IMG/VR virus record: IMGVR_UViG_3300042374_001687 | Coordinates: 79,619 to 143,618 of that record | Strand: one strand, 5' to 3' | Length of the DNA: 64,000 nucleotides | DNA from: a virus | In this document: positions 6,826 to 43,639 of the stretch, one piece after another | Numbering within the stretch: the stretch's first letter is position 1 | Layout of the letters: each line of letters starts with the position of its first letter | Position numbers and translations under genes: made by a program | Notes under the pieces: generated by a model | Database searches by the model: none | What the model saw: the letters and a program-made list of their open reading frames with translations, nothing else | Told to the model about the DNA's origin: nothing

Positions 6826-8802
6826 ATGGCAGCAGAAACAATTATTCAGATACGCAGAGGTCTTGCGGCAACATGGACGGAGCTCAATCCGGTCCTGGCG
6901 GCTGGCGAGATGGGTCTGGAGACGGACACAAAGAAGGCCAAGATCGGCAACGGCTCGACCGCTTGGAATAGCTTGGCCTATTCAATCGGCCAAGTTGACA
7001 ACATCAATTTTAGCGGCAACACGATCAGCTCCACCGACGCGAACGGCGACATAACGCTCGATCCGAACGGAACGGGCGACGTCAGAATTGCCGACAGTGC
7101 TGACCTGTATGTCGGTGGCGATGTCTATGCGAACAACAAGAGACTAGCGACCTTGGAGTATGTTGACGCTGTCAAGCAAGGCTTGGACGTCAAGGATTCG
7201 GTCAGGGTTGCGACGACTGGAAACATCACATTGTCGGGCGAGCAGGAAGTTGACGGCGTATCCTTGGTCGCCGGTAACCGCGTGCTAGTCAAGAATCAGA
7301 CCACAGCCAGCCAGAACGGCATTTATGTCGTTGCTGCTGGTTCTTGGACGAGAGCCGACGATGCCAACGCCGATGCCGATGTTACATCTGGTCTCTTCAC
7401 ATTCGTGGAGCAAGGCACGGTTAATCAGGACAGCGGTTGGGTTTTGACCACAGACGGGGCGATCACAGTCGGAACGACCTCGCTTGCTTTCGCGCAGTTT
7501 AGTGGTGCGGGCTCGGTTACAGCCGGCGCCGGCCTCACAAAGAGTGGAAACACTCTTGATGTTGGCGGCACTGCTGACAGAATCACTGTCAATTCCGACA
7601 GCGTCGACATTGCCAGCACCTATGCCGGTCAGTCCAGCATCACCACGCTCGGCACGGTGACGACGGGAACTTGGAATGGTACAACGGTCGGGCTCAGCTA
7701 TGGCGGCACGGGAGCTACGGACGCCTCGGGTGCTCGCTCAAACCTCGGCCTCGTGATCGGAACGGATGTTCAGGCGTACGATGCTGAGTTGGCGGCTCTT
7801 GCCGGCACAACCAGTGCGGCTGACGCTCTTCCGTACTTCACAGGTGCGGGCACAGCGACGACAACAACGATGACGAGCTTTGCTCGTGGCCTTCTCGACG
7901 ACACCAGCGCGTCGGACGCCCGCACAACGCTCGGCGTTGTGATCGGCACCGACGTTCAGGCGTACGATGCTGAGTTGGCTGCTATCGCTGGCCTGACCAG
8001 CGCTGCTGACGCTCTCCCGTACTTCACGGGTGCGGGCACAGCTGCGGTGACCACGCTGTCCAGCTTCGGCAGATCGCTTGTTGACGACGCCAGTGCGTCG
8101 GACGCCCGCACAACGCTCGGCGTTGTGATCGGCACCGACGTTCAAGCGTACGATGCTGAGTTGGCTGCTATCGCTGGCCTGACCAGCGCTGCTGACGCTC
8201 TCCCGTACTTCACGGGTGCGGGCACAGCTGCGGTGACCACGCTGTCCAGCTTCGGCAGATCGCTTGTTGACGACGCCAGTGCGTCGGACGCCCGCACAAC
8301 GCTCGGCGTTGTGATCGGCACCGACGTTCAAGCGTACGATGCCGAACTCGCGGCCCTCGCGGGTCTGACAAGTGCTGCTGACGCTCTCCCGTACTTCACA
8401 GGCACGGGAACAGCGGCGACAACGACGATGACGAGCTTTGCTCGTGGCCTCCTTGATGACGCAAGCGCGTCGGATGCCCGCACAACGCTCGGCGTTGTGA
8501 TCGGCACTGACGTTCAGGCGTACAACAGCACTCTTGCTGCTGTGGCTGCCGGAACCTACACGGGTGACGACAGCATCACGACTGTCGGAACCGTGACGGC
8601 GGGCACATGGAATGCCAGCGTGGTCGGATCCACCTACGGTGGAACCGGGCTCTCGAGCTACGCTGCTGGCGATATCATCTACGCCTCCGCGACGGACACC
8701 TTGGCCAAGTTGGCTAAGGGAACCGGCTACCAGTTCTTGAAGATGAACTCGGCCGGCACCGCTCCGGAATGGTCCAGCTCGCTGGACGGCGGCACCCCGT
8801 GA
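6826..8802 (+). CDS. Virion fibre protein (Mtd N-terminal-like domain + 62-aa repeats)
   Basis: [36 protein letters not shown]-domain; KDSVRVATT...[14 protein letters not shown] domain; Gly/Thr/Ala-rich repeats. Confidence 0.85.
7747..8525 (+). repeat. 186-bp (62-aa) tandem repeat, 4 copies plus partial
   Basis: Units start 7747, 7933, 8119, 8305, 8491 ([17 protein letters not shown]...ASDARTTL). Confidence 0.95.
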
Positions 8803-11261: not shown

Positions 11262-11351
11262 GGCGCGATGGCTTAGTATTTAAGCCTTTTTGGGGCGGGT
11301 TCGACTATAATAGTAGAGTCGGCGTATAGATAAACCAAAAGAGAGGTGTCG

Positions 11352-13841
11352 ATGGCTTGGTGGGATTTTTACAAGTTGTGGACTTATCAATTTGAGAAAG
11401 GTCCCATAGAAAGAATGGACACCGCCCAAATAACCGGGGCGGGCGTTGTGGTTCCGGACGCCATGCCGGATCTGCGGGGGGATTCCTTTGGCCTGACTCA
11501 GTCACAGATCAGGCTGTATGACAGCAACGACTTTATAGACCTGTCTACTGTTACCAACAGGCAATCCAGGTACAAGGAATACGAAAGGCTCAGAAGCGTG
11601 GCTGAGATGGAAATGGCCATGACCGTGATCAGCGACGAGGCTTGCGTATCCGGCGATACAAAGATAGCCACACTTTTTGACGGCCAAAAAAGTATCAAGT
11701 GGCTGACCGAGAGATGGAGGAAGGATCCTAGTCCCTTCCTTGTTTACTGTTGGGATTTTGAAAAAGAAGATTATTCCTTGGGCTGGGCGTACGATCCTAG
11801 GGTTGTAAAGACAGAAAAGACGATCAGGGTGCTTCTTGACGACGGAAGCAGTTTCGTAGTGACGCCCGACCACAGAATACTGACGAGGGATCAGGAATGG
11901 GTTCATGCAGAAGATCTTGAGGTTGGGAGCGAACTGATGCCGTTCTACCGAATGGATCCGAACAAGAAGATAAATAGCTTCAAGTCAAGGCAATTCCCCA
12001 GAATATTCACATTTGACGGATGGAAGCACGAGCGCCAGTTCATAGACGAGTGGAGGGACGGAAAGTCAAAATACAAGAGGGTGAGCGAAGCATCCAGGCT
12101 TATAGCTGCGGGTGCCACATGTCGCTCCGTGGAAAGCATGATGAAGCACTCATGGAAGAGCATAGATTCATGGATCAGAAAAGAAGGGTTTTGCACCAAA
12201 GAACTCAAGTGGCTGGGGAAGAGGAAGGACAGGCGGAGAGTGGTCGGAATACTACCCCATAAGGAAATGGAGGTTTTTGATCTTAGCGTAAAAGACCACG
12301 AGAATTTCTGTACTGACAGCGTTGTGATGCACAACTGCCAGAAGAACGAAAAGGGAAATGTTCTGACAATAACGGTGGAGAACGAGCAGATAAAGAAAGA
12401 ACTTGAATTCTTATGCTTCAACAGGAAGATGCTCAATCTTAACCGTAAGGCTTGGCAGATGGTAAAGAAGCTCTGCATATTTGGCGACGGCTTCTATGAA
12501 CTCATAACCGACCCTAAGAATCCAAAGTACGGAGTGCTCAAGATCCAAGAACTACCCCCTGACAGCATGTACAAGATAGTAACAACTAAGGGAAGGGTGG
12601 TGGAATTCCAGCAGAGTAAAGAGGGGCCGGACTATCAAGCCCTGACACGCAGCGAAGTCTCAAAAGCAACTGACCAGGAGTTGATGCAGTCCACGGCGAT
12701 CAGGTTCGCCCCCACACAAGTAATCCACATGTACCTGGGTGACGACAGAAGGACGTTTTATCCATACGGACAAAGCCTTATGGAGCCGGCCAGAGGGCCT
12801 GCCCACCAGTTGAGACTTATGGAGGACGCGATGATGGTATATCGCCTCTCCAGAGCTCCCGAGCGTAGGGTTTTCTACATAGATGTCGGACAGTTGCCGC
12901 CATTCAAAGCCGAGGCGTTTGTGGAAAGGATGAAAGATCAATTCCGGAAAAAGAAGGTTCCGGCCGCAAGGGGAGCGGGAGCAAATGCGGTCGAGGAAAG
13001 ATGGCACGCACCGGCGGCTGACGAGGACTACTGGATTCCGATCCGACCGAGTGCGAATACTAGGATAGAAACCCTCCCCGGAGCCCAGAACCTTGGCGAG
13101 ATCGATGATGCCCTATATTTCAGGAACAAGCTTTTCACAGCACTCAACTTCCCAAAGAACTACCTGAGCAATGAGGATGTGGGGGCGACAAGAATAACGC
13201 TGAGCGCCCAAGACGCAAGGTTTGCAAGGATGGTAGAAAGAATACAATCAAGCATGGAGGATGCAATACTTGAAATATGTGAGCGTCACCTTGAAATGAG
13301 AGGGTTCCCATCAGAGGCCTATGAAGACCTTAAGATAGAGATGACGCCACCGAGCAGCTGGAGGGAACTGAGCGAGGCCGAGATCATGAACAACAGGATC
13401 AACGCGGTAACGACGCTGAAGTCCTCCATGCTCATGAGCGATTTTGACTTGCTTACTAAATTCCTCAAGATCAGCGAGGAGGAGGCCGTTAGAATAATAT
13501 CAAGGAACAAGATTCAGAAACTAGAAGACCTCAAGATCCAGATAATAGGACAAAACCCGCAGCTTTTGGGAGTAGGTACGCCAGGAATTCCAACCGGGGA
13601 GCCTGAAATTGGAGCCGAACGAGGCGGCCCCACGCCAAACCTAGAGGCACCCGAAGAGTCCGAAAGCGAAATAAACCAGACGGAAGAGGAAAGTCCCGAG
13701 GCGGAAACGGGAGAAGGCCAAGAAATAACGGCCGAACTCCCAGACCCCAGCGAAGAGGACATCAAAAAGTACGATTTGGGCATAGAGAACTACAGCAAGG
13801 ATATAGACAACGAGGACATAGACTGGAGCGAAGAGGGATGA
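11352..13841 (+). CDS. Portal protein (T4 gp20-like), intein-interrupted
   Basis: YGQSLMEPAR, QLRLMEDAMMVYRLSRAPERRVFYIDVGQLP..KAE, EDYWIP, TRIETLPGAQNLGEIDD..YF..KL..AL..P. Confidence 0.95.
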   Translation: MAWWDFYKLWTYQFEKGPIERMDTAQITGAGVVVPDAMPDLRGDSFGLTQSQIRLYDSNDFIDLSTVTNRQSRYKEYERLRSVAEMEMAMTVISDEACVSGDTKIATLFDGQKSIKWLTERWRKDPSPFLVYCWDFEKEDYSLGWAYDPRVVKTEKTIRVLLDDGSSFVVTPDHRILTRDQEWVHAEDLEVGSELMPFYRMDPNKKINSFKSRQFPRIFTFDGWKHERQFIDEWRDGKSKYKRVSEASRLIAAGATCRSVESMMKHSWKSIDSWIRKEGFCTKELKWLGKRKDRRRVVGILPHKEMEVFDLSVKDHENFCTDSVVMHNCQKNEKGNVLTITVENEQIKKELEFLCFNRKMLNLNRKAWQMVKKLCIFGDGFYELITDPKNPKYGVLKIQELPPDSMYKIVTTKGRVVEFQQSKEGPDYQALTRSEVSKATDQELMQSTAIRFAPTQVIHMYLGDDRRTFYPYGQSLMEPARGPAHQLRLMEDAMMVYRLSRAPERRVFYIDVGQLPPFKAEAFVERMKDQFRKKKVPAARGAGANAVEERWHAPAADEDYWIPIRPSANTRIETLPGAQNLGEIDDALYFRNKLFTALNFPKNYLSNEDVGATRITLSAQDARFARMVERIQSSMEDAILEICERHLEMRGFPSEAYEDLKIEMTPPSSWRELSEAEIMNNRINAVTTLKSSMLMSDFDLLTKFLKISEEEAVRIISRNKIQKLEDLKIQIIGQNPQLLGVGTPGIPTGEPEIGAERGGPTPNLEAPEESESEINQTEEESPEAETGEGQEITAELPDPSEEDIKKYDLGIENYSKDIDNEDIDWSEEG
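11643..12335 (+). mobile_element. Intein (231 aa) in portal
   Basis: A/CVSGDTKIA block A, VTPDHRIL block B, VFDLSV.DHENF block F, VVMHN/C block G. Confidence 0.92.
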
Positions 13842-22279: not shown

Positions 22280-23848
22280 TTGATTGACTATTATATATGT
22301 AGTATGACAGACATAAAAAATCAATATCAAATGGCCAATATAATAGTGCTTGATGAAATCAAGGAACCTACATGGATGAAAAGGACGCTGGCGGCCGAGA
22401 GGGTAGCGAATCCGAATACATTCATCTTTTTCAGGCACGAATGGAACGAGCGTTCGGAGCATATACTTTCACACATCAATTCCTATTCGCAGGATCGGTT
22501 CAAAATACATGCACGAAAGTGCACCGTCAAAAAGATCAGGTCTAAGCAGCATAGGGATTTTTGCGACCTCCACCACATCCAAGGATCAAACAAACTAACC
22601 CTCTCTGCGTTCGGGATATTTTTAGGCGACGATCTTCTGGGCGTTCTGTCGCTCGGAAGGCATAACAGAGACAGCAAGGCGACTGTGCTTGATCGTCTGT
22701 GTTTTAAGGCGGGGTGGCGGGTTGTGGGTGGAGCCAGCAGACTTTTCTCCGCCGCCAAGAAATGGGCCTTGGAGAACGGCATCTATTCCATAGTCAGTTT
22801 CAGCGACAACAGAATGAGCCTGGGTACGGTTTACGAAAGGCTAGGTTTTGAGATTGATTGCGAACTGCCTCCCGATTACATCTACATCAAGGCTGACGAC
22901 CCCGGCGTCGCCTTCAGCAAACAGAGCCAGCGCAAGAAAGTCACCGGATGTCCTTCCGATGTGACCGAGAAGGAGTGGGCAAGCAGGCAGGGCCTTGTTC
23001 AGGCTTTCGACGCCGGAAAGAAGAGGTGGTTGCTCAAACTCCGATTGCACAAAGAAGTGCCGTTGAAGAGCAGGAGGCAGGGATATTACGAGACGAAAAA
23101 GGCCAACCCTAGGGTTTTGTACTACCAGTCCAGCTACGAACTGAAAGCGGCAACCATATTGGACGAGATGGACGATGTGAATTCTTACATTAGCCAGCAC
23201 ACTTTCACGATGGACGGAAGGGAGAGGGTAACTGATTTCATAGTAACATGGAAGGACGGATCAAAAACCATACTTGAAATCAAGCCGGAAAGGAGGATTG
23301 AACAGTTCAGAGAGCAGATAGGGGACAACAAGGAGTACGCTAGGCGGAACGGGTGGAAGTTCCAAATATGGACGGAGAAAGAACTCGGATTCCAAACCGA
23401 GTATTTCGCGACCAAGTGGGCCGACGAGTTCATATCAAAGATCACCAAAGTAGACTTCGTTCAAGAGAGAAAGGACAGAAATCTCACCAAGTCAAAGAAA
23501 TACTATGCCGAGAAGATCGCCACCAACAAGGTCTCCGTCTTCTGCGAGTACTGCCAGACGACGCATGAGGCTCTTAGATTGACTCACGACAAGAACATAG
23601 CCCGCAACGGCCGGTACATTTGTGAACGCGAGGGAGGGCATATAGCGGGCAGCAAGCCCAAGCTCCATCTCAGAAAGGACAACCCCCATGCCGCCGATGG
23701 GAAGAAGCAGTGCTTGGGTTGCAAGCAAGTTCTATCCTTTGATAATTTCGGCACGGACAAGGTTCGTGCGGACGGGTACGCCAGCAAGTGCAAGGAGTGC
23801 AGGAGGAAGGCGGCGAACGAGAAATATGCCAAGAAGAAGGCTACTTGA
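22280..23848 (+). CDS. Putative homing endonuclease: Mom/GNAT-like domain + TnsA-like nuclease + zinc fingers
   Basis: F..LHHIQG, RLCFK..VVGGASRL, SFSDNR..G.VYE.LGF; YQSSYE..TDFIV..LEIKP; C-terminal CxxC motifs. Confidence 0.7.
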   Translation: MIDYYICSMTDIKNQYQMANIIVLDEIKEPTWMKRTLAAERVANPNTFIFFRHEWNERSEHILSHINSYSQDRFKIHARKCTVKKIRSKQHRDFCDLHHIQGSNKLTLSAFGIFLGDDLLGVLSLGRHNRDSKATVLDRLCFKAGWRVVGGASRLFSAAKKWALENGIYSIVSFSDNRMSLGTVYERLGFEIDCELPPDYIYIKADDPGVAFSKQSQRKKVTGCPSDVTEKEWASRQGLVQAFDAGKKRWLLKLRLHKEVPLKSRRQGYYETKKANPRVLYYQSSYELKAATILDEMDDVNSYISQHTFTMDGRERVTDFIVTWKDGSKTILEIKPERRIEQFREQIGDNKEYARRNGWKFQIWTEKELGFQTEYFATKWADEFISKITKVDFVQERKDRNLTKSKKYYAEKIATNKVSVFCEYCQTTHEALRLTHDKNIARNGRYICEREGGHIAGSKPKLHLRKDNPHAADGKKQCLGCKQVLSFDNFGTDKVRADGYASKCKECRRKAANEKYAKKKAT

Positions 23849-41512: not shown

Positions 41513-42367
41513 TCAAGGACTGGCTGGTCGCTCGGGGCAAGCTTGTTGAAGGCCAAGTCCAGACTTAATTTTTGCTGCCGTGCTTTCGTTTTCAAAAAGA
41601 AGGGCGTCTTCGGACTCTACCTCGCTCCTCCAGTTTTCGTTCATTTCTTTGTACTTCTCGGAAAGTTCCTCTGGGGCCGGCATCTTTAGTCCGGATATCT
41701 CGACAAGCAAAGACCCCAATTCCCCGTGACCCTTGATTTCGTAAATATCGCCCACGCTTGTTCCGGGCTTTATGTGAAGTTTCCTAGGGCCGTAGAGTGT
41801 TTCCACCTCTATTATGCCGCCTTGAAGAGCTACAATTACCGGTATGGCTTCGTTGACAAGAAGCAGTCCGGCATCCTTGTTGGGCGAAGGCTTGTAACGC
41901 TCATGTTCCTTTATGGAATAGTGAACCTTTATGTCCTTTATGGATCCGCCTATCCTCTGTGCTTTGTGCAACTTAGAAACTGGTGACGCTTTTAAAAGCA
42001 ACATTGGGGGTATCTTCTCCACCACCGTCAGGACATGAATGTTTGCCTTGGATGAAATATTCCTTTTGTCTGATATCATGGGAACGCTGGATATAACCTC
42101 TTGCCTCAGGTGTGTCTCCAAGGTCGTTCCGAATATTGCCTCCTCAAGAGATACTTGAACATGAAACTCAATCTTGTCTTCTTTTGGGGTTTCGTCTTCT
42201 TGCAAGGATGTAAGAAGTTTGTATGCCTCGTGTATCTTCAAGAATTTCTCAGGATCGCCGCCCTTGTCGGGGTGGTTCTCCTTGCTCATCTTCAGATATG
42301 CCTTTTTTATAGTCTCCTTGGGGTCGGAACTTATTCCTAGGATTTCATACGCTTCTTCAATAGTCAT
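41513..42367 (-). CDS. dnaJ: DnaJ-class co-chaperone (J domain + C-terminal domain)
   Basis: AYEILG, IKKAY...NHPDKGGD..KF..I.EAY; VSLEEAIFG, ALQGG.IEVETL.G. Confidence 0.9.
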   Translation of the reverse strand: MTIEEAYEILGISSDPKETIKKAYLKMSKENHPDKGGDPEKFLKIHEAYKLLTSLQEDETPKEDKIEFHVQVSLEEAIFGTTLETHLRQEVISSVPMISDKRNISSKANIHVLTVVEKIPPMLLLKASPVSKLHKAQRIGGSIKDIKVHYSIKEHERYKPSPNKDAGLLLVNEAIPVIVALQGGIIEVETLYGPRKLHIKPGTSVGDIYEIKGHGELGSLLVEISGLKMPAPEELSEKYKEMNENWRSEVESEDALLFENESTAAKIKSGLGLQQACPERPASP

Positions 42368-42385
42368 ATCTTATATATGATTGCA

Positions 42386-42427
42386 TAAAAAAAGCCGGCC
42401 AGGTCATTTCTGACTCTGGCCGGCTTG
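42386..42427 (-). terminator. Intrinsic terminator ending the large ncRNA
   Basis: AAGCCGGCCAG...CTGGCCGGCTTTTTTT. Confidence 0.85.
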
Positions 42428-43260
42428 ATTTGGCGAAAGGATTTTGATCCACTCGTGGTTTAACAGAGGAATGAATCAATCATTGAAGTCCGTCACTTAA
42501 AGCAGATCCCACAGGTTCCTTCCGCCTTTGGGCATTTTTAACCCACCGCGTTTGACCTGTGTGTGACAGTCGTGGTCTGTCCGTAAACTTGCTGACGGCC
42601 ATGGATTTAGCCTTTCGCGCCAGATTCCGCCTGTAACCAGCGGTTGCCCTAGCGTGGAGGCGTATGTCCAACATGCTGACGACTCGTTCCGTGCATTTGC
42701 CGCGACATTCCTGTTTTTTAACGTGTTCAGGCACCACGTCGTTTCTGGGGATTTTTTATCCCGGGCTCAACATCACTATGTTCCGTCGCCACGGATGCTC
42801 TGTGTTCACAGAGGGATTTCCATGAGAGACTGCTGGTTCAAATGGCTATCCCGTGATGCTCAAGGACCGTTACTCCGTTTTATTTTGGGCTTGCCCACAA
42901 GGAGCAAGTGCGTTCCCGAACTGTGCGGAGGCGTTTTGAAAACATTTGGGCGAGTCTTCATTTCTGTCGGCTCGTCCTATCTGCCTTCTCATCCTTTCTA
43001 CGAAGCCCGCCTTAGAGTTCCGAGTCCGACTCCTCCTTTTACGGTTTTGTCGGATCGTATGTGGTTCAGATGCACCTTTCGGAGCAGGAGCCACATCCCG
43101 GCCCATTCTGCGGGTTGGGCTTTTGTCAACGTGGAGATCTTTTGGACTCCATCGTATGACCCTAAGGCTTCATTTTTCACCGATACCTTTTCGGTATCGG
43201 CAAGGACTTGGCTTAATTGTCAATGATCAGCTCAGCCATCGCGTTTCCGTGCGGCTGATG
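42390..43260 (-). ncRNA. Putative large structured non-coding RNA (~870 nt)
   Basis: No credible ORF; own promoter and terminator; 10-bp 5'/3' closing helix; numerous GNRA-type hairpins. Confidence 0.7.
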
Positions 43261-43265
43261 GGCTC

Positions 43266-43293
43266 AGTATACAAAGATCGGCACGCGTTGCAA
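43266..43293 (-). promoter_or_regulatory. Sigma70-type promoter for the ncRNA
   Basis: TTGCAA-N16-TATACT with TG just upstream of -10. Confidence 0.7.
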
Positions 43294-43348
43294 GGGCCGG
43301 ACGAAATTTTTTTTCGGATTGGTCGCAAACCCTTTTGGCAAAAGAAGA

Positions 43349-43639
43349 TCAGTCCTTATAGGGTATCCAGTGCTTCCGGGTAAATAGGAGGTTTGCGAAA
43401 AATCCACAAAATGCGCTCATGATATTGCTCGCATACGGAAGGGTGACATCCTGCATCGGGTTGATGAGGAAGCTCAGTCCCAAACTGATCCAGAAACTCG
43501 AGCATTCGTGGCAGAGGAGCATCCTTCTGATGTAGGGCACTCTTGCCACAAGGTTTCTAAACGGAACACTGGCCTCGGTGTCGCTCCACGCGTAGCACAC
43601 CCCGAGGCTCGTGATGAGAAATAAAACGAGAGTGTTCAT
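43349..43639 (-). CDS. Small membrane protein (DUF1360-like, CxxC..FW)
   Basis: Hydrophobic helices, LLCHECSSFW. Confidence 0.65.
   Translation of the reverse strand: MNTLVLFLITSLGVCYAWSDTEASVPFRNLVARVPYIRRMLLCHECSSFWISLGLSFLINPMQDVTLPYASNIMSAFCGFFANLLFTRKHWIPYKD

Follow-up and report, generated by a model that had tools for sequence, protein, structure and literature searches.

The window analysed here is a stretch of 64,000 nucleotides, bases 79619-143618 of a 143.6-kb IMG/VR virus record with an estimated completeness of 28% (CheckV). Because the phage encodes a T4-type major capsid protein, a T4-type portal and a T4-type terminase (Pfam), because the nearest GenBank relative of its capsid protein is found in an uncultured phage of 595 kb (LR756511.1; 77.6% amino-acid identity), and because related IMG/VR contigs reach 532 kb, it is, on this evidence, a huge T4-like phage; the capsid proteins of cultured T4-like phages are only about 30-35% identical to that of the window. 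On the minus strand, between a 96-aa ORF and a DnaJ-like gene, lies the interval of interest. The first-pass annotation had described it as a large, structured, non-coding RNA equipped with a promoter and a terminator, and that description is supported by homologues, by covariation and by the conservation of expression signals. The features of the locus are collected in Table 1. The DnaJ-like gene starts 19 nt past the terminator of the RNA, with a TATATA motif ahead of its start, and freshwater metagenome assemblies contain identical copies of the locus; lake samples in which this phage occurs include JGI 3300013005 and ENA ERZ27272074.

Table 1. Features of the RNA gene and its immediate neighbours (positions in the window; helix numbers as in the consensus structure of the respective part).
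Feature	Position	Strand	Basis and remarks
Upstream neighbour, 96-aa ORF	43349..43639	-	Outside RNA gene; Pfam search, no match
UP-element-like A8T3 tract, about -45 to -58	43304..43314	-	A-tract/T-tract equally distant in four lineages
Sigma-70-type promoter, TTGCAA-16 nt-TATACT	43266..43293	-	Motif scan; position conserved
GC-rich discriminator GAGCCC	43260..43265	-	GCCC invariant in 6/6 sequences; between -10 and likely start
Predicted mature transcript, about 874 nt	42386..43259	-	5' end placed at the A at +7 from -10 in all lineages
5'-terminal hairpin with GNRA tetraloop (GAAA; GAGA in L116)	43232..43258	-	Pair probability 0.98
boxA-like element UGAUCAUUGACAA	43217..43229	-	Core TTGACAATT invariant in all lineages
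11-bp hairpin, GAAA(A) loop	43178..43203	-	4 pairs with compensatory changes; 86-97% of cells paired
Multi-helix junction domain, four hairpins	43009..43168	-	RNAalifold on MAFFT; closing helix 43168-43160/43017-43009
Two-arm sub-domain, closed by 42997-42991/42867-42861	42861..42997	-	31 pairs with compensatory changes (helices 2-7)
Sub-domain with almost invariant 8-9-bp closing helix	42769..42860	-	Helices 8-11; most conserved block of the family
Two conserved hairpins, 42764-42745 and 42740-42720	42720..42764	-	Helices 12-13; 97% of cells paired; flanks invariant
Long composite arm, GUAA-type tip (window: GUUA)	42565..42710	-	Helices 14-19
3' sub-domain	42432..42545	-	Helices 20-23: hairpin 42545-42529, then helix 42526-42518/42440-42432 around hairpin 42480-42444
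Intrinsic terminator: 17-bp hairpin, invariant loop AGAAAUG, U-tract	42386..42427	-	Helix 24; 7 double-change pairs
Downstream neighbour, DnaJ-like gene	41513..42367	-	Outside RNA gene; Pfam DnaJ and DnaJ_C

The earlier reading that the interval holds no credible ORF stands. ORFs on the minus strand do not exceed 85 aa. The plus strand has ORFs of 190 aa and 145 aa, neither of which matches a Pfam family or has coding-type codon usage, and ORFs of this length are expected by chance because the minus strand is A-rich and the plus strand is therefore poor in stop codons. Used as a protein query and as a bait for miscalled ORFs, the 190-aa ORF brought up no relatives, either among 5.8 billion proteins or in viral contigs. 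Codon-usage scores are at most 0.05 in every frame of the interval, compared with 0.135 +/- 0.072 for real genes, and an alternative genetic code was rejected since no frame is broken by just one type of stop codon. The AT-rich homologues contain about 20 stop codons in each frame and no ORF above 75 aa, and in the alignment of homologues substitutions lack a 3-base periodicity and no ORF is conserved. At the level of sequence statistics, these analyses show window 42386-43259 (minus strand) to be non-coding.

Five homologues were found in IMG/VR phage contigs (G041/L108, L112, L115, L116 and L123). G041, a collinear homologue on a 251-kb contig, was the sole find when the complete records of 50 capsid relatives were searched with the element by BLAST, and the RNA is absent by BLAST from the other 49, including a complete 532-kb genome. 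The remaining four were recovered with scan patterns made from blocks conserved between the window and G041; the pattern that found L115 and L116 is a block within the most conserved sub-domain of the RNA family (42769..42860). Further pattern matches (L110, L111, L113 and L120-L122) were rejected as chance matches. All homologues align with the window RNA over its full length. Together with the window they form four lineages that are pairwise 59-62% identical and range in G+C from 0.39 to 0.53; G041 and L123 are 68% identical, and only the four lineages are independent, three of the six sequences being close relatives. The family was not found in LR756511.1 with a covariance model, nor by BLAST of three of its members against 50,697 GenBank phage records, and a scan of prokaryotes (one genome per species, n=185,579) with the most conserved block yielded three chance matches and no homologue.

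Folding of the single window sequence gives a z-score of -6.8 for the whole 880 nt against dinucleotide shuffles. The 5' 261 nt (z = -6.3) and the terminator contribute most of this signal, and the remaining 556 nt alone fold no better than shuffles (z = -1.4). A consensus structure was obtained with RNAalifold on structure-blind MAFFT alignments, handling the 5' domain and the 3' part separately, and comprises 257 base pairs, 105 of them with compensatory double changes, spread over about 35 helices that carry such support. The 5' domain accounts for 76 pairs, of which 26 have double changes (12.9 +/- 2.3 with shuffled partners, 5-11 with slid partners) and in which 92.3% of cells are paired; the 3' part accounts for 181 pairs, 79 of them with double changes (32.4 +/- 4.2 shuffled, 10-21 slid), and 92.5% of cells are paired. 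The observed counts were reached in none of 500 shuffles of the 3' partners. In the slid control partners are moved by 1-3 columns, so that relatedness is preserved, and paired cells amount to about 40% compared with the 92% observed. A model-fitted alignment of the 5' domain agrees with the MAFFT-based structure, and the 3' part, with covariation support as good as that of the 5' domain, also holds the longest invariant blocks. A search for homologues and covariation had been proposed in the first-pass annotation as one way to check the RNA; it returned both, and no codon-level conservation.

The RNA begins with the 5'-terminal hairpin (helices 2-3), retained in all lineages with some compensatory changes, followed by the boxA-like stretch, the 11-bp hairpin and the four-hairpin junction domain; three multi-helix sub-domains come next, then the long-range helix 42526-42518/42440-42432 and finally the terminator. 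The closing helix of the junction domain has double changes in 4 of 9 pairs (96% of cells paired). The most conserved block of the family includes hairpin 42795-42782 (CCGUGGCGACGG), double changes occur in 5/6 pairs of helix 17 and 7/8 pairs of helix 18 in the composite arm, and helix 21 of the 3' sub-domain is 98% paired with 3 double-change pairs. Many local hairpins, several with GNRA-type loops, had been reported for the interval; those named exist, and most are conserved with covariation, while the retention of the CUCUGUG-AA-CACAGAG hairpin in the homologues was judged by eye and not counted. At least five helix tips are GNRA tetraloops, and one hairpin loop of the junction domain varies between lineages as GAAA, GCAA, GAGA and GUAA, a substitution pattern as expected of putative tertiary-contact loops. 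The loop AGAAAU is invariant on two hairpins in all lineages, one in the two-arm sub-domain (42951-42975, minus strand) and one in the terminator (42390-42427, minus strand); these loops may be repeated binding sites or tertiary contacts.

Not every long-range pairing withstood comparison. The proposed 10-bp helix closing the 5' and 3' ends (43229-43220/42486-42477) is fully complementary in the window (10/10), but only 3-5 of the 10 positions are complementary in the five homologues and its pair probability is about 0, and it was rejected. A loop-loop pairing of the purine-rich tip of the last 5'-domain hairpin with a 3'-proximal CCUCUG loop, noticed by eye, was dropped since the purines take part in a local helix.

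The expression signals are conserved along with the structure. A motif scan placed the promoter where it had been annotated (43293-43266), and in all lineages the same layout recurs: an A/T-tract at around -45 to -58, a -35 element starting with TTG, a spacer of 16-17 nt, a -10 element of the form TAnAnT, a GC-rich discriminator ending in GCCC, and an A exactly 7 nt past the -10. The sequence itself varies within the consensus (TTGTGT/TAGACT, TTGCGA/TATACT and TTGTAA/TACAAT in the other lineages), and predicted -35 and -10 elements at the 16-18-nt spacing of sigma-70 promoters occupy positions shared by the homologues. The invariant GCCC could alternatively serve to pair with GGGC at 43008-43005, which never varies. 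Promoters with such a layout are those of stable RNAs, for example E. coli rrn P1, and when the sequences are read side by side the RNA-gene promoter resembles E. coli rrsH P1 in its layout. At the other end, the strong terminator that had been called at 42427-42386 was likewise found, as a GC-rich hairpin (42427-42390) with 7 covarying pairs followed by a U-tract on the transcribed strand. It is conserved as part of the RNA itself, and the end of the U-tract at 42386 marks the predicted 3' end of the transcript.

Another motif is frequent next to gene starts of the phage. TATATA/TAGATA is strongly enriched upstream of genes throughout the 143.6-kb contig (TATATA precedes 37 of 168 crude gene calls), lying either about 10-13 nt before the ATG, in a leaderless-like arrangement, or about 33-37 nt before it with a GGAGG ribosome-binding site; the copy before the DnaJ-like gene is at 42371-42380. 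The motif resembles a T4-late-type promoter. The RNA-gene promoter differs from it, and because of this difference the time at which the RNA is expressed is a guess.

A boxA-like element lies 2-10 nt past the 5' hairpin and about 30-45 nt past the likely start, on the transcribed strand of all lineages. The resemblance to the boxA of rRNA leaders, pointed out in the first-pass annotation, is borne out by the invariance of the core and by the G041-group element, TGCTCTTTGACAATTTG, which matches the E. coli rrsH leader, TGCTCTTTAACAATTTA, at 15 of 17 positions. The published consensus is GYTCTTTAANA for gamma-proteobacteria (PMC5725501), and is given as UGCUCUUUAACA for E. coli and AUGAUCUUUGAAA for B. 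subtilis (PMC13753749). The G041 group has one mismatch to the gamma-proteobacterial consensus. The window element departs from that consensus at 3 of 11 positions and agrees with the B. subtilis one at 10 of 12, and the host's own boxA may differ from both. Overall, the phage variants are intermediate between the E. coli and B. subtilis forms, and the 143.6-kb contig has a single occurrence of the family motif, compared with 0.03 expected. A boxA variant was also searched in 151 Burkholderiales genomes with a view to inferring the host, and gave near-chance matches, none adjoining rRNA.

In B. subtilis rrn operons a small 5'-terminal hairpin precedes boxA (PMC13753749), and on transcripts of rRNA, suhB and CRISPR loci boxA brings in NusB-S10 and leads to a complex that withstands Rho (PMC5725501, PMC13753749). 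The phage gene shares with rRNA operon leaders the UP-like tract, the GC-rich discriminator and a small hairpin followed by a boxA-like sequence near the 5' end, and with both rRNA leaders and boxA-controlled CRISPR arrays a long untranslated transcript, here a structured one. Unlike in rRNA operons, the RNA downstream of the boxA-like element of the window is not rRNA, and an RNase III-type 5'/3' processing stem is not conserved in the family. A boxA would be functionally sensible here because Rho would naturally act on an untranslated RNA of 0.9 kb, and we infer that the element is a putative Nus-factor antitermination site.

Comparison with known RNA families had also been recommended (GOLLD, ROOL, OLE and introns among them), and no family matched. 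Rfam 15 gave no match to the RNA gene when the whole window was searched at the gathering score, nor when the RNA region and the 5' domain were searched at E <= 10 and three homologues at E <= 1. GOLLD (RF01998) was rejected, with no covariance-model match even at E <= 10, as were ROOL (RF03087), OLE, HEARO, raiA and other large Rfam RNAs; a group I or group II intron was rejected on the lack of an Rfam intron match, the intergenic site and the retention of the 3' end of the element in a relative that lacks the rest. The RNA has features in common with GOLLD: both are ornate, multi-helix, stand-alone phage or prophage RNA genes of about 0.8 kb without an assigned function, and GOLLD was first seen in freshwater lake metagenomes, just as the window RNA resides in freshwater phages. 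The carriers here, however, are huge T4-like phages, and the window RNA does not sit beside tRNA genes. GOLLD is often adjacent to tRNA genes in phages and prophages, which is typical rather than strictly defining. No tRNA was found in the 64-kb window, and one of the five homologue neighbourhoods has one about 3.3 kb from the RNA gene, so that there is no consistent tRNA adjacency. To our knowledge, a boxA-type leader has not been described for GOLLD. With ROOL and OLE the RNA shares large size, a highly structured nature and many conserved helices, as seen in these bacterial or phage RNAs, but at about 874 nt it is longer than either (about 580 nt for ROOL and about 610 nt for OLE). Judged by these searches, the window RNA is a new, previously undescribed family of about 870-960 nt.

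The RNA gene is independent of its neighbours, since the gene neighbourhoods differ among the lineages and share no common neighbour; it is present in one copy per record. In L002, whose DnaJ-like protein is 82% identical to that of the window, the flanking genes are just 88 nt apart and about 899 nt present in the window are missing from the same site. Homology links the 88-nt spacer to roughly the final 60 nt of the window RNA, and the spacer carries the 3' strand of helix 21 and the terminator, whose stem differs from that of the window by compensatory changes. Because the spacer retains this end of the RNA gene, L002 shows, as far as its sequence tells, what a deletion left behind and not an unoccupied site. 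L012 (4309-4944, plus strand; Logan ERR4869830), a close relative, has a 211-aa ORF at the RNA-gene site, which by eye looks like a SAM-dependent methyltransferase, and the terminator is missing. Lost in L002, replaced in L012 and absent from 49 related records, the RNA is an accessory gene, and comparison of these relatives presents its site as a variable, cargo-swapping hot spot and the gene as dispensable. Elsewhere, homologous genes for an ~800-aa beta-propeller protein adjoin the RNA gene in L130 (G054) and L109 (G041), in opposite orientation relative to the RNA, a flip that points to a local rearrangement at the 3' border of the RNA gene.

On balance, we favour the view that the locus is an independent accessory gene for a new family of large structured RNAs, found in some huge T4-like freshwater phages, with the following proposed biogenesis and an action in trans. 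Host sigma-70 RNA polymerase would start, probably early in infection, at the stable-RNA-type promoter with its UP-like tract and GC-rich discriminator. As they emerge, the 5' hairpin and boxA would recruit host NusB-S10 and other Nus factors, as in rRNA operons, and the resulting complex would render the long untranslated transcript Rho-resistant and aid its folding. The intrinsic terminator would then end transcription, its hairpin staying on as a conserved 3' element. The chances of this whole scheme, from sigma-70 start through Nus/boxA antitermination to intrinsic termination, seem to us slightly better than even. The folded RNA would act in trans, as an RNA or a ribonucleoprotein machine. 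That it works in this manner, and neither by antisense pairing nor by cis-regulation, is probable. A search for antisense targets gave no match of 14 nt or more to the RNA elsewhere in the 143.6-kb contig, and no linked protein gene was found across the neighbourhoods of the lineages. An RNA of this size, with its many conserved helices, its GNRA loops and its junction blocks that do not vary, suggests a folded machine or scaffold of the GOLLD/ROOL kind, or else a ribozyme or a protein-binding decoy. ROOL and GOLLD form RNA-only multimers, as seen by cryo-EM (bioRxiv 10.1101/2024.12.08.627333), and within the trans-acting reading a comparable architectural assembly is conceivable, if unlikely. 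More broadly, and tentatively, with the balance leaning somewhat against it, the family might represent a class of giant, ornate phage RNAs not seen before, made in bulk by drawing on the rRNA-type transcription programme of the host. In the course of infection by huge phages such an RNA would then serve as a machine, either of RNA only or of RNA and protein; a multimeric cage, a ribozyme and a device aimed at ribosomes or at defences are examples.

A decoy or sponge would be an abundant folded RNA that, while the phage takes over, ties up a host protein or a defence sensor or draws off Nus factors or ribosomal proteins. Such a role would fit a sporadic accessory gene at a variable hot spot, where a relative has a methyltransferase-like gene instead, as well as the host-type promoter and the invariant AGAAAU loop on two hairpins, which could be repeated protein-binding sites; yet a decoy would seldom require some 35 conserved helices together with many junction blocks that never vary. 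We consider it a minority reading, one that overlaps with the main explanation and is not an exclusive alternative to it. That the RNA is a large ribozyme, and thus a new class of catalytic RNA, is improbable: its size, its division into several domains, its multiple GNRA tetraloops and its unpaired blocks that never vary, such as those around 42782-42795, are typical of group I and II introns and RNase P, but GOLLD and ROOL share such features without known catalysis, the RNA matches no Rfam ribozyme family, and no signature of a substrate or cleavage site was seen.

The absence of about 899 nt from L002 and the different loci occupied in different lineages could also be taken as the trace of a mobile genetic element, or of an intron without an ORF, inserted in the window. 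Against this speak the last ~60 nt retained in L002, the search for terminal repeats and target duplications, which found none, the lack of a match to Rfam intron models, the intergenic site with a promoter and terminator of its own, and the single copy per record, which together make insertion very improbable. Least credible of all is a leader or 3'UTR that belongs to a neighbouring gene and acts in cis, or else a protein gene that has decayed and whose structure is incidental. The RNA does sit between two same-strand genes, and read-through from upstream genes is possible; however, between it and the DnaJ-like gene stands a strong terminator that is conserved, the neighbours differ in every lineage, and 105 pairs show compensatory changes where no frame is conserved. 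This reading is contradicted by both the covariation and the variable context.

It is important to point out that bacterial and phage RNAs of this size and complexity are very few (rRNAs, RNase P, group I/II introns, GOLLD, ROOL, OLE and HEARO), and that each of these has yielded new insight into RNA biology or structure. The covariation support is unusually dense for a family of only four lineages, the RNA is compact enough for cryo-EM, and its carriers are huge phages whose biology is largely unexplored. The combination of an rRNA-like promoter, a 5' hairpin and boxA leads to the testable idea that a phage uses Nus-factor antitermination for a long untranslated RNA; the conserved expression signals provide a handle for producing the RNA in a laboratory host, and natural plus/minus pairs for function tests are at hand because close relatives have lost the gene.

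Several other genes of the window deserve mention. The DnaJ-like protein next to the RNA gene has the J and C-terminal domains without a zinc-finger domain; a phage-type DnaJ family of about 39 clusters in metagenomes is 46-57% identical to it, and a metagenome scan with this neighbour as query gave unrelated J-domain matches only. The T4-type portal gene (11346-13841, plus strand) contains an intein (Pfam Intein_splicing, residues 156-330) ahead of the Portal_T4 match. A 658-aa protein (6826-8802, plus strand) has an N-terminal Mtd_N domain (major tropism determinant), which hints at a target of a diversity-generating retroelement, and a 522-aa protein (22280-23848, plus strand) combines Mom-like, GNAT acetyltransferase and TnsA-like endonuclease N-terminal domains.
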